From the sequence record OQ599310: DNA of 64,000 nt. The stretch is one strand, 5' to 3'. Positions 9,834 to 60,086 of the stretch are shown piece after piece (position 1 is the stretch's first letter; the number at the start of each line of letters is the position of its first letter). The notes under the pieces are model-generated. The model saw nothing but the letters and a program-made list of their open reading frames with translations. It was not told where the DNA came from and made no database searches. This DNA is from Escherichia phage 55. Both the position numbers and the translations under genes were made by a program.

Positions 9834-9866
9834 GTTTACTTCTCCAGTAGTTGTGTTATTATAGAC
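9834..9866 (+). promoter_or_regulatory. T4-type early promoter with flanking 10-bp inverted repeat (CCAGTAGTTG / CAACTACTGG)
   Basis: GTTTAC at 9834-9839, TATTAT -10 at 17 bp; inverted repeat 9844-9853 and 9871-9880. Confidence 0.5.
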
Positions 9867-9888
9867 CTATCAACTACTGGAGAACAAA

Positions 9889-10565: not shown

Positions 10566-10598
10566 GTTTACAGGGGTCTATGGTAGTGATACTATAGA
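10566..10598 (+). promoter_or_regulatory. T4-type early promoter (with GGTCTAT/ATAGACC inverted repeat)
   Basis: GTTTAC at 10566-10571, TACTATAG -10 region. Confidence 0.5.
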
Positions 10599-23057: not shown

Positions 23058-23089
23058 GTTTACTTCTCCTCTGGTTTTGATATTATAAC
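23058..23089 (+). promoter_or_regulatory. T4-type early promoter with 11-bp inverted repeat (CTCCTCTGGTT / AACCAGAGGAG)
   Basis: GTTTAC, TATTAT at 17 bp; repeat arms 23066-23076 and 23096-23106. Confidence 0.5.
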
Positions 23090-23112
23090 CATATCAACCA
23101 GAGGAGAATAAT

Positions 23113-33902: not shown

Positions 33903-35228
33903 ATGCAATTGAATTCTCGTAATCTAAAAAGTATTATTGATAACGAAGCCTTAGCATATGCGATGTACACCGTTGAAAACCGTGCAATCCCAAACATGAT
34001 TGATGGATTTAAGCCGGTTCAACGTTTTGTGGTTCATCGTGCGTTAGATTTGGCTCGTGGTAATAAAGAAAAATTTCATAAACTTGCGTCAATTGCAGGC
34101 GGTGTTGCAGATTTAGGTTATCATCATGGCGAATCTTCTGCACAAGATGCAGGTGCATTGATGGCTAATACGTGGAACAACAACTATCCACTGTTAGACG
34201 GCCAAGGTAACTTTGGTTCTCGAACAGTCCAAAAAGCTGCAGCATCTCGTTATATTTTTGCTCGTGTAAGTAAAAATTTCTATAATGTCTATAAAGATAC
34301 TGAATATGCTCCAGTACATGAAGATAAAGAACACGTTCCACCAAAATTCTATCTTCCTATTATTCCGACAGTTCTTTTGAATGGCGTCTCTGGTATTGCA
34401 ACCGGTTACGCAACAAATATTCTGCCTCATAGTTTCAAATCAGTCAAAAAGGCTGTGTTACAAGCTCTTCAAGGTAAAAATGTCACTAAGCCAAAAGTTG
34501 AATTCCCGGAATTCCGCGGTGAAGTGCATGAAGTTGATGGGCGTTATGAGATTCACGGAACATATAAGTTCACATCTCGCACTCAAATGCAGATAACTGA
34601 AATCCCGTATAAATTCGACCGTGAAACATATGTGAGTAAGGTTCTTGACCCGTTGGAAGACAAAGGTCTAATCTCGTGGGAAGATGATTGCGGTGAACAC
34701 GGCTTTGGGTTTAAGGTGAAGTTCCGTAAAGAGTACTCGCTTCCTGATGATGAAGAGCTACGTCATGAAAAAATCATGAAAGATTTTAGTCTCATCGAAC
34801 GTCGTTCACAAAACATCACAGTGATTAATGAAAAGGGTAAATTAGCTGTCTACGATAACGTAGTGGACTTAATCAAAGATTTTGTTGAAGTCCGTAAGAC
34901 TTACGTTCAGAAACGTATTGACAACAAAATCCTTGAATCTGAAAAAGCATTTAAACTTGCTTTTGCTAAGGCACACTTCATCAAAAAAGTTATCAGTGGC
35001 GAAATTGTGATTCAAGGCAAGACTCGTAAAGCTTTGACCGAAGAGCTAGCACAAATCGAAATGTATAAAGAACATGTCGATAAACTGGTAGGTCTTAACA
35101 TCTTCCATATCACTTCCGATGAAGCACGTAAACTAGCAGAAGAAGCTAAAGCTAAGAAAGAAGAAAATGAGTATTGGAAGTCTACTGATGTTGTGACAGA
35201 GTACACTAAAGACTTGGAGGCACTTTGA
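33903..35228 (+). CDS. 52: topoisomerase II medium subunit (GyrA-like cleavage domain), gene 52
   Basis: 441 aa; GFKPVQRFVVH and GyrA-like core. Confidence 0.9.
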   Translation: MQLNSRNLKSIIDNEALAYAMYTVENRAIPNMIDGFKPVQRFVVHRALDLARGNKEKFHKLASIAGGVADLGYHHGESSAQDAGALMANTWNNNYPLLDGQGNFGSRTVQKAAASRYIFARVSKNFYNVYKDTEYAPVHEDKEHVPPKFYLPIIPTVLLNGVSGIATGYATNILPHSFKSVKKAVLQALQGKNVTKPKVEFPEFRGEVHEVDGRYEIHGTYKFTSRTQMQITEIPYKFDRETYVSKVLDPLEDKGLISWEDDCGEHGFGFKVKFRKEYSLPDDEELRHEKIMKDFSLIERRSQNITVINEKGKLAVYDNVVDLIKDFVEVRKTYVQKRIDNKILESEKAFKLAFAKAHFIKKVISGEIVIQGKTRKALTEELAQIEMYKEHVDKLVGLNIFHITSDEARKLAEEAKAKKEENEYWKSTDVVTEYTKDLEAL

Positions 35229-35304
35229 GTGCCCTAGCCTTAGGATTTCTCAGTGCAATAGCTGCACTAGTGATTTGGCTGTATTGGTTGGACAAACATG
35301 ATTA

Positions 35305-35330
35305 GGGAGCCGAAGCTCCCTTTTGTGCAT
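35305..35330 (+). terminator. stem-loop GGGAGCCGAAGCTCCC followed by T-run
   Basis: hairpin then TTTTGTGCATTTTT. Confidence 0.55.
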
Positions 35331-35339
35331 TTTTCCTCA

Positions 35340-35414
35340 CAAAACAGTTTACATGTGCTTCAAACATGATATTATAGACCTATCAAAACAAAACAACCAA
35401 ATTGGAGAAATAAA
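35340..35414 (+). repeat. promoter/5'UTR cassette, copy 1 (GTTTAC..GCTTCAAACATGATATTATAGACCTATCAAAA..TTGGAGAAATAAAATG)
   Basis: near-identical to 35660-35733. Confidence 0.6.
35347..35376 (+). promoter_or_regulatory. T4-type early promoter
   Basis: GTTTAC, TATTAT at 17 bp. Confidence 0.5.
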
Positions 35415-35630
35415 ATGTCTAAAATGAAATTAACCCAAAACACAACTACTCGTTTCGGTAAAGTTAAACCTGGTATGAATGCTCCCCGTAAAGCACTTGT
35501 TGAAGAATTAAATTTCTTAGAAGTTGAAATCAATTCTTTAGTTGTTCGCGGTTCAAACGGGTATCATTTAGAAAAGCTTCGTTCTAAAAAGGCAAAACTT
35601 ATTAGCCTTATTAAAGAAATGAGTTTGTAA
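35415..35630 (+). CDS. hypothetical basic protein
   Basis: 71-aa ORF behind duplicated promoter cassette. Confidence 0.45.
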   Translation: MSKMKLTQNTTTRFGKVKPGMNAPRKALVEELNFLEVEINSLVVRGSNGYHLEKLRSKKAKLISLIKEMSL

Positions 35631-35659
35631 ATTTTACCAGGGCTTTTGAAAAAGAGCCC

Positions 35660-35733
35660 AAAATAAAGTTTACTTTTGCTTCAAACATGATATTATAGAC
35701 CTATCAAAAAAAATACTAATTTGGAGAAATAAA
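35660..35733 (+). repeat. promoter/5'UTR cassette, copy 2
   Basis: near-identical to 35340-35414. Confidence 0.6.
35668..35697 (+). promoter_or_regulatory. T4-type early promoter (motA)
   Basis: GTTTAC, TATTAT at 17 bp. Confidence 0.5.
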
Positions 35734-36366
35734 ATGTCTAAAGTTACTTACATCATCAAAGCTTCTGAAAACACTCTGAATGAAAAAACTGCTGCAATAA
35801 TGGTTTATATCATTAAGAACAACTTCACCACTGCTGCCAATGTCCGTGAAGCTCTGGAAGCAGAATACAGCGCATCAGTTGTTAACTCTAACATTGGTGT
35901 ATTGATTAAGAAAGGTTTAGTCGAAAAATCCGGTGATGGACTTATAGCAACAGGCGAAGCAATGGATATTATCCAAAAAGCTGCAGACCTCTTTGCCCAA
36001 GAAAATGCTCCAGAACTTCTTCAGAAACGTAACACCAGAAAAGCACGTGGAGTTACTCCTGAAATGCATGAATTAGCAAACTTTGTTTTTGAAAATATTA
36101 AAGATAAAGTTGAAGTTAAAGAAATTGGTGAAAACCGTAGTAACTTAGAAGTTCGATTCGCTAAACGAGTTCTAGGCATTCGCCAAATTGAAATTCGACG
36201 AAATGGCGCTCTTAGAATCTTTGCATACAACATGTCAGAAACTGAATCAAAGCTGTTTACTTCTCTTGAAAATGATGTTAAGATTAAGATCGGTGGTAAA
36301 TATACTTACATTGACTTCCCTAATGTGTCCAAAGAAATCATTACCCTTGTAACTAACGTACTGTGA
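35734..36366 (+). CDS. motA: MotA middle-transcription activator
   Basis: MSKVTYIIKAS...LNEKTA, NSNIGVLIKKGLVEKSGDGLI match T4 MotA; 210 aa. Confidence 0.9.
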   Translation: MSKVTYIIKASENTLNEKTAAIMVYIIKNNFTTAANVREALEAEYSASVVNSNIGVLIKKGLVEKSGDGLIATGEAMDIIQKAADLFAQENAPELLQKRNTRKARGVTPEMHELANFVFENIKDKVEVKEIGENRSNLEVRFAKRVLGIRQIEIRRNGALRIFAYNMSETESKLFTSLENDVKIKIGGKYTYIDFPNVSKEIITLVTNVL

Positions 36367-60057: not shown

Positions 60058-60086
60058 TTTACACACCACAAGGATTGTGGTACAAT
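60057..60086 (+). promoter_or_regulatory. T4-type early promoter with CCACAA/TTGTGG inverted repeat
   Basis: GTTTAC then TACAAT at 18 bp. Confidence 0.5.

Follow-up and report, generated by a model that had tools for sequence, protein, structure and literature searches.

Within a 64,000-nt stretch of the genome of Escherichia phage 55 (sequence record OQ599310; hereafter, the window, always meaning the whole stretch), two nearly identical sequences precede two adjacent genes, a small open reading frame for a 71-aa protein (ORF71) and motA, which raises the question of what kind of element is repeated here and how the two copies came to resemble each other so closely. Over the 2 kb around the repeat locus, the window is 97–99% identical to Mosigvirus phages, that is, the RB69 group of T4-type phages, which includes many Escherichia and Shigella phages; by this similarity, the source genome is that of an RB69-like T4-type phage of Mosigvirus. 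The gene order is ndd, ac, 52.1, gene 52, a 26-aa hydrophobic ORF, ORF71, motA, and the arn genes. Gene 52 (33903–35228, + strand, as are all features of the locus described below) encodes the medium subunit of DNA topoisomerase II in a 441-aa ORF that is annotated as gp52 in all relatives, whereas motA (35734–36366) encodes the 210-aa activator of middle transcription, as identified by Pfam and PHROG matches (MotA_activ, 1e-39; MotCF, 5e-9; phrog_1345, 1.1e-89). Judging from the genome comparisons described below, these two genes are the conserved left and right flanks, respectively, of a variable slot. The 26-aa ORF (MSALALGFLSAIAALVIWLYWLDKHD; 35225–35305), which was read from the sequence and gave no PHROG match, begins with a TTG that overlaps the stop codon of gene 52 (TTGA) and occupies the position of motA.1 in T4. 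An NTGA overlap between the stop codon of gene 52 and a small ORF is also present in T4 (motA.1) and in Dhakavirus (a 34-aa ORF). In ATK47, WFK, and RB69, the 26-aa ORF at 35225–35305 is unannotated.

The first-pass annotation had judged by eye that the regions 35340–35414 and 35660–35733 are near-identical. Self-alignment bears this out, except that these boundaries fell slightly short at the 3′ end: in a global alignment, copy 1 (P1, 35338–35423) and copy 2 (P2, 35659–35742) are identical in 76 of the 86 columns (88%), with two 1-nt gaps, so that the similarity is not weaker than it had appeared. Both copies were also recovered by pattern search and by a repeat search, the latter resolving the pair into two blocks, 35338–35392/35659–35713 (89%) and 35387–35423/35706–35742 (86%), with a 2-nt indel between them. 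The copies share a perfectly identical block of 36 nt, and the similarity extends from about 9 nt upstream of the −35 element to past the third codon of the downstream gene (ATG TCT AAA); neither the hairpins upstream nor the coding sequences downstream could be aligned between the copies. With up to 3 mismatches allowed, a 42-nt core pattern matches the 64-kb window at exactly two places and is absent from 100 shuffled sequences. For comparison, 13 candidate early promoters were collected from the + strand of the window (TTTAC, 16–18 nt, TAYHAT). Their other 77 pairs have a mean identity of 59% (sd 3.7) and a maximum of 68%, compared with 85% for P1 and P2 in the same 87-nt frame. Thus, the similarity of P1 and P2 goes well beyond a shared promoter consensus. 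The block TATAGACCTATCAA, which comprises the −10 element and the start region, is also found at the early promoters at 9835, 10567, and 52753 and is generic to the early promoters of this phage.

A composite element of this kind has been described in T4-type phages under the name PeSL (promoter-early stem-loop), consisting of a stem-loop, an AT-rich tract, a sigma-70-like early promoter, and an SD with a start codon, all within about 100 bp (Arbiol 2010, PMC2839356; Comeau 2014, PMC4122927). PeSLs of the T4/PST group have the promoter consensus TTTACW...TAYWAT and a stem-loop just upstream of the promoter (PMC2839356; PMC4122927). Both copies analyzed here are promoter-plus-5′UTR cassettes, one for the 71-aa ORF and one for motA, exactly as the first reading of the sequence had claimed. 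P1 comprises the −35 element GTTTAC (35347–35352), a TG (35367–35368), the −10 element TATTAT (35370–35375), the SD GGAG (35404–35407), and the ATG at 35415, followed by TCT AAA, with a predicted transcription start near 35382. In P2, GTTTAC is located at 35668–35673, TATTAT at 35691–35696, GGAG at 35723–35726, and the ATG, again followed by TCT AAA, at 35734, with a predicted start near 35703. The two copies agree fully in their −35, −10, start region, SD, and spacing, with 7 nt between GGAG and ATG in both cases, so that both elements end in an SD and a start codon, as PeSLs do. The PeSL consensus is matched by TTTACA/TATTAT in P1 and TTTACT/TATTAT in P2, both with a TG at −15/−14; the spacing from TTTACW to TAYWAT is 16 nt (17 nt from GTTTAC), compared with N17 in the published consensus, and lies within the sigma-70 range. 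An A/T-rich tract lies upstream of each −35 element (TTTTGTGCATTTTTCCTCACAAAACA in P1, and AAAATAAA in P2, directly past the hairpin). From the consensus match, P1 and P2 are predicted to function as promoters. Generic sigma-70 and terminator scans yielded no enrichment over shuffled sequence and are uninformative alone, and a search for known RNA families (Rfam) in 35200–35800 returned nothing above noise.

In both copies, the spacer between the −35 and −10 elements includes the MotA box core, TGCTTCA (35356–35362 and 35677–35683), at which position the Dhakavirus copies carry TTCTGCTTTA. In the T4 middle promoters, the MotA box, (a/t)(a/t)(a/t)TGCTTtA, is located 12 ± 1 bp from the −10 element, whereas here TGCTTCA ends 7 bp before TATTAT and is accompanied by a full −35. 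A MotA-dependent middle promoter, and with it MotA autoregulation, was rejected on account of this distance, the absence of a TAnnnT 11–13 bp downstream of TGCTTCA, and the presence of a consensus −35; by their geometry, P1 and P2 would be early, not middle, promoters. A MotA-box-like core nevertheless lies inside the spacer of P2, the promoter for motA itself, and the spacer of the T4 motA promoter contains AAGCA, the reverse complement of TGCTT. In ATK47, a change that looked compensatory hinted at a hairpin under selection within the spacer of P1 (CATGT-GCTTCAA-ACATG). Counted by exact match in the phage collection, the haplotypes numbered 69 for T/A, 4 for C/G, 7 for the T/G wobble, and 12 for the C/A mismatch. 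This hairpin was rejected because all four haplotypes exist and the disruptive one is more common than the compensated one.

Each promoter is preceded by a GC-rich stem-loop. Hairpin A (35304–35324; AGGGAGC-CGAA-GCTCCCT, then TTTT) has a 7-bp stem and a stability of −14.6 kcal/mol (z = −4.1), and hairpin B (35640–35659; GGGCTTTT-GAAA-AAGAGCCC) has a stability of −12.3 kcal/mol (z = −4.0); for either hairpin, 0 of 200 shuffles were as stable. Relative to TTTAC, hairpin A is located at −44 to −27 and hairpin B at −29 to −10, as expected for the stem-loops of a first and a second PeSL, respectively. Hairpin A runs into TTTT GTGCATTTTT and carries a terminator annotation in ATK47 and WFK, and the terminator scan of the window made no + strand call here; hairpin A is probably where the gene 52 transcript terminates. 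Past hairpin B comes AAAATAAAG, an A-run, and because this hairpin lacks the T-run that would give an intrinsic terminator its U-run, a terminator role of hairpin B appears doubtful. It is kept in JS98, UP19, and G4498 as GAGCTCTT-GAAA-AAGAGCTC, with one compensatory change from G-C to A-T and one change from T-G to C-G across genera. The loop of hairpin A (35305–35320) is inverted among relatives: the window and RB69 have GGGAGC-CGAA-GCTCCC, and ATK47, HX01, and WFK have the exact reverse complement, GGGAGC-TTCG-GCTCCC.

Taken together, the composite anatomy over about 100 bp, the T4/PST promoter consensus, the stem-loop just upstream, the tandem copies flanking an ORFan, and the existence of relatives with a single chimeric element or a different ORF (see below) make P1 and P2, as judged from these features, a clear instance of the already described PeSL kind, at a new locus and in new genera. 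Indeed, motA, gene 52, RB69, JS98, Mosigvirus, and Dhakavirus are not mentioned in the two PeSL papers (PMC2839356; PMC4122927). Two differences stand out, namely, that the gene driven by the right-hand element, motA, is a conserved regulator and not an ORFan, and that the repeat is unusually long and well preserved, reaching into the coding sequence. The published elements are further characterized by promoter and terminator or attenuator activity and by ORF-plus-PeSL mini-circles that form during infection. T4 offers a second comparison. In this phage, motA is an early gene with an mRNA that is cut by RegB inside the SD (reviewed in PMC2988021 and PMC3014915), and P2 occupies the position that the early promoter of motA has in T4. 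Hairpin A and the P1 upstream tract have recognizable orthologues in the hairpin and upstream tract of T4, CACAAAAC(G/A)GTTTAC. However, T4 has one element and no cargo gene besides motA.1, and its spacer and leader are different in sequence. The pattern of strong RegB sites is GGAGRAYARAA, with which GGAGAAATAAA, the sequence of both leaders in the window, agrees at 9 of the 11 positions. With GGAG and an A-rich tail as in strong RegB sites, the mRNAs of both ORF71 and MotA may be cut by RegB at GGAG.

The gene between the two elements, ORF71 (35415–35630), encodes a 71-aa basic protein that belongs to phrog_6200 (1.6e-39), a PHROG of unknown function. It had no Pfam match, and its matches to PDB sequences were at E ~0.9 or worse. 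With only 8 clusters, all from phages, among 5.8 billion proteins, ORF71 is a narrow ORFan. The AlphaFold model (pLDDT 76.6) consists of a disordered basic N-terminus and a two-helix hairpin, a generic helical fold for which the fold search returned a single significant match, the protein's own Dhakavirus homologue in phage Bp7. Compared with the Dhakavirus phages JS98, VR5, and C6, ORF71 has omega values of 0.19–0.23 at dS of 1.2–1.3 (for JS98, 74.6% aa identity, omega 0.19, dS 1.31); the corresponding values for motA against JS98 are 0.24 and 1.02. By these ratios, ORF71 is a real gene under purifying selection. It was found in 93 phage records, 76 of the Mosigvirus type and 17 of the Dhakavirus type. 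The P1-type promoter is present in 129 records, so that, compared with the 76 Mosigvirus-type records of ORF71, approximately 50 of about 130 Mosigvirus records lack the cassette. In ATK47 and ATK48 (KT184309 and KT184310), no feature is annotated over ORF71.

How old, then, is the pair? The first-pass annotation had suggested a recent cassette duplication or recombination. However, a homologue of ORF71 lies between two near-identical elements in four Dhakavirus genomes (JS98, VR5, C6, and ABTNLsp5), and ORF71 is as diverged from JS98 as its flanks are (71.4% versus 72.4% nt identity). The cassette is thus as old as its neighbors, and a recent duplication fails to account for it. The position-specific signatures in the flanks of P1 and P2 are stable across Mosigvirus genomes. 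On this evidence, the pair either predates the split of Mosigvirus and Dhakavirus or was transferred along with its flanks. The 42-nt core behaves differently from the flanks: P1 and P2 of the same genome share 39.25 of the 42 positions, compared with 37.25 and 37.75 for orthologues between the genera and 37.6 for cross-paralogues, so that the core, by this measure, carries no orthology signal. Both Mosigvirus copies have TGCTTC and both Dhakavirus copies have TGCTTT; the −10 element is TATTAT in both Mosigvirus copies and TACTAT in most Dhakavirus copies, with the exceptions of P1 of ABTNLsp5 and P2 of C6; and VR5 has TTA in both copies. These shared states point to gene conversion on top of functional constraint, partly homogenizing the copies, with the signal coming from about three variable sites in a 42-nt core that is itself under functional constraint. 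ABTNLsp5, C6, and ATK47 each have 4 differences between their own two copies. The Dhakavirus repeat extends only to CTATCAAA, with leaders that differ between the two copies, and in Mosigvirus, the identity of P1 and P2 continues through the SD and the first three codons. This Mosigvirus-specific extension suggests later conversion events.

The first-pass annotation had also proposed comparing the locus in related phages, and this comparison revealed the full pair, single chimeric elements, and alternative cargos; altogether, the slot exists in four states in 15 genomes and 4 metagenome or IMG/VR contigs. The gap between gene 52 and motA is 185 nt in RB69 versus 505 nt in the window, a difference of 320 nt or exactly one period, and the corresponding interval is 331 nt in WFK, phiC120, HY126, and the typing phages (including typing phage 6) versus 651 nt in the window. 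In the alignments, the single elements of RB69 and of the metagenome contig L019 are of the P1 type upstream and of the P2 type in the UTR, which places the RB69 crossover, as far as these alignments tell, inside the identical core. The single elements of WFK, HY126, L021, and L018 are of the P1 type through the UTR, and the WFK-type junction lies inside the 22-nt TTGGAGAAATAAAATGTCTAAA block (SD/ATG). These two crossover points imply at least two independent events, and both RB69/L019 and the WFK type have a single chimeric element at an empty site, as described for PeSLs. WFK-type junctions are present at ≥98.9% identity in many cassette-less Mosigvirus records; the junction BLAST for empty sites is not discriminating, given that P2-motA also aligns end to end, and these counts are approximate. 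Pattern scans yielded one IMG/VR contig and three metagenome contigs, which reproduced both empty types and the full type; four contigs are too few for statistics. The direction of each event, deletion or insertion, was assigned by parsimony, not by phylogeny.

The cargo is exchanged as well, so that the slot also shares with PeSL regions an ORFan that differs between close relatives by insertion, deletion, or replacement. G4498 (Tequatrovirus) and UP19 (Dhakavirus) both carry a 75-aa ORF in the slot, AnYang has an unrelated 73-aa ORF there, and the slot of T4 is empty, containing motA.1 only; all slot cargos fall into PHROGs without a known function. Between G4498 and UP19, the 75-aa cassette, which takes in hairpin B and P2, has 97.4% identity, and the flanking genes have 69.6% (gene 52) and 64.8% (motA). 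Its boundaries are located at CTATCAA on the left, in two genera, and near the motA ATG on the right. By these identities, the 75-aa cassette moved horizontally between genera, almost unchanged. HY126 (L006) is a chimera in which the end of gene 52, the small ORF, and the hairpin are of the Dhakavirus type, followed by a P1-type element and motA of Mosigvirus; this third junction lies next to the position of hairpin A, right past the T-run of the hairpin. Upstream of motA in AnYang (L007), the element past the 73-aa cargo has neither hairpin B nor a good −35 but an inverted repeat, AGGTCTAT...ATAGACCT, over the −10, resembling the promoter at 10567 of the window. Thus, of the two possibilities that the first reading had left side by side, recombination is supported by the one-period indels and the chimeric elements, whereas the recent date is contradicted by the Dhakavirus pair and by the cargo dS of 1.2–1.3.

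Related architectures are found elsewhere. Two early promoters of the window, at 9840–9884 and 23064–23108, contain perfect inverted repeats of 14 bp and 13 bp, TTCTCCAGTAGTTG...CAACTACTGGAGAA and TTCTCCTCTGGTT...AACCAGAGGAGAA, with the same architecture and different stem sequences. In both, the promoter spacer contains the 5′ arm, and the SD of the downstream gene is part of the 3′ arm; read-through transcripts would therefore sequester the SD, and locally started ones would not. Candidate early promoters form two clusters of three, at 9835, 10567, and 10997 (1.2 kb) and at 60058, 61240, and 62646 (2.6 kb), each promoter being located upstream of a small ORF, and both clusters are probably further PeSL-rich variable regions. 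The same type of promoter and leader, …TTTAC…TG(C/T)TT(C/T)AAACATGTTATTATAG…GGAGAA…ATG, recurs in other genera at unrelated loci: in UFV13 (L008, ~700–790, between goF and spackle), it includes ATGTCTAAAGT and drives a 60-aa ORFan, and in Serratia phage CHI14 (L010, ~700–810), it precedes nrdC.10.

We consider it very probable that P1 and P2 are a tandem PeSL pair that brackets ORF71 in the variable slot flanked by gene 52 and motA, and that this pair recombines, is old, and has been partly homogenized. The host sigma-70 RNA polymerase would start at each element right after infection, as it does at the early promoters of T4, which are very strong (UP/−35/TGn/−10) and are used immediately after infection. 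Hairpin A would end or attenuate the gene 52 transcript, and part of the P1 transcript would probably read through hairpin B, which has no U-tract, into motA. With the same leader, GGAG SD, and spacing on both mRNAs, the same early kinetics would be expected for ORF71 and MotA, and co-regulation of the two genes is plausible, given that the copies do not differ in the −35, −10, start region, SD, or spacing. General recombination is very active in T4-type phages. By the genome comparisons above, the 86-nt direct repeats, 320 nt apart, are substrates for homologous recombination; a crossover between P1 and P2 deletes exactly one period (ORF71, hairpin B, and one promoter) and leaves one chimeric element, and exchange with other phages via the same conserved blocks inserts or replaces a cargo together with the downstream PeSL. 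Gene conversion would have partly homogenized the pair, in Mosigvirus over a tract running through the SD and the first three codons.

Several other explanations have to be weighed against this one. A tandem duplication of the motA promoter cassette that arose recently, and in this particular phage, would fit the 36-nt perfect block and the identity through the SD and ATG, which look young, but it is extremely improbable in view of the pair around an ORF71 homologue in four Dhakavirus genomes, the cargo dS of 1.2–1.3, and the stability of the P1- and P2-specific flanks across Mosigvirus; moreover, a conserved gene, not duplicated sequence, lies between the copies. Alternatively, selection for an optimal early promoter and leader could by itself have made the copies converge, with no role of the elements in recombination. 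The early promoters of T4 are known to share a consensus beyond the −35 and −10 elements, TATAGACCTATCAA recurs at unrelated early promoters of the window, and the same promoter type is used at other loci in UFV13 and CHI14. However, other early promoter pairs reach at most 68% identity, and convergence would account neither for length differences of exactly one period, nor for chimeric junctions at two different points inside the repeat, nor for the boundaries of the G4498/UP19 cassette at conserved blocks; we regard it as very unlikely. Identity through the SD and first codons in Mosigvirus might instead have been selected because ORF71 acts together with MotA and is made in step with it. 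This explanation draws on the position of ORF71 directly upstream of motA in two genera, where it is under purifying selection, on the identical leader, SD, and spacing in Mosigvirus, and on the small, basic, and helical nature of the protein. It appears improbable, given that ~50 of roughly 130 Mosigvirus records, including RB69, are devoid of ORF71, that unrelated ORFs take its place in other phages, that the two leaders differ in Dhakavirus, and that ORF71 has no homology to any transcription factor.

The remaining alternatives concern the mode of movement. Tandem PeSLs have been proposed to recombine, giving rise to an ORF mini-circle and a single chimeric PeSL, or to the insertion or exchange of a cassette (PMC2839356; PMC4122927), and PeSL mini-circles were detected in phi1 and RB49 (Arbiol et al., PMC2839356). 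ORF-plus-PeSL mini-circles could integrate at a fixed core such as TATAGACCTATCAA, which would be a dedicated, site-specific movement. In two genera, the 75-aa cassette has CTATCAA as its left boundary, which agrees with this, as does the period itself, which corresponds to the predicted circle (ORF, hairpin B, and one promoter). Nevertheless, such movement is unlikely: the crossovers are located in at least two places in the repeat, with the third junction of HY126 near hairpin A, as expected from exchange driven by homology; the locus has no associated recombinase gene; and general recombination is very active in T4-type phages. A broader version, in which the gene 52–motA junction is a dedicated cassette-capture site where circles of ORF and PeSL, travelling between T4-type genera, integrate in a directed, att-like manner at the invariant TATAGACCTATCAA block and the cargo is expressed immediate-early and limited by RegB, like MotA, seems to us decidedly unlikely. 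We thus retain homologous recombination within an old tandem PeSL pair as the preferred explanation.

The locus leaves the current understanding of T4-type phages unchanged. It is, however, an unusually clean natural example of the PeSL gene-shuffling model in these phages: a single site shows the tandem arrangement, two independent deletion products with mapped crossovers, two alternative cargos, and the exchange of a cassette between genera. PeSL elements thus operate beside a core regulatory gene, motA, and not only within ORFan blocks. In addition, the locus accounts for a polymorphism of 320 nt in length across roughly 130 Mosigvirus genomes, flags a real gene, ORF71, that some annotations have missed, and offers a simple system in which recombination between short repeats can be measured in the course of infection.
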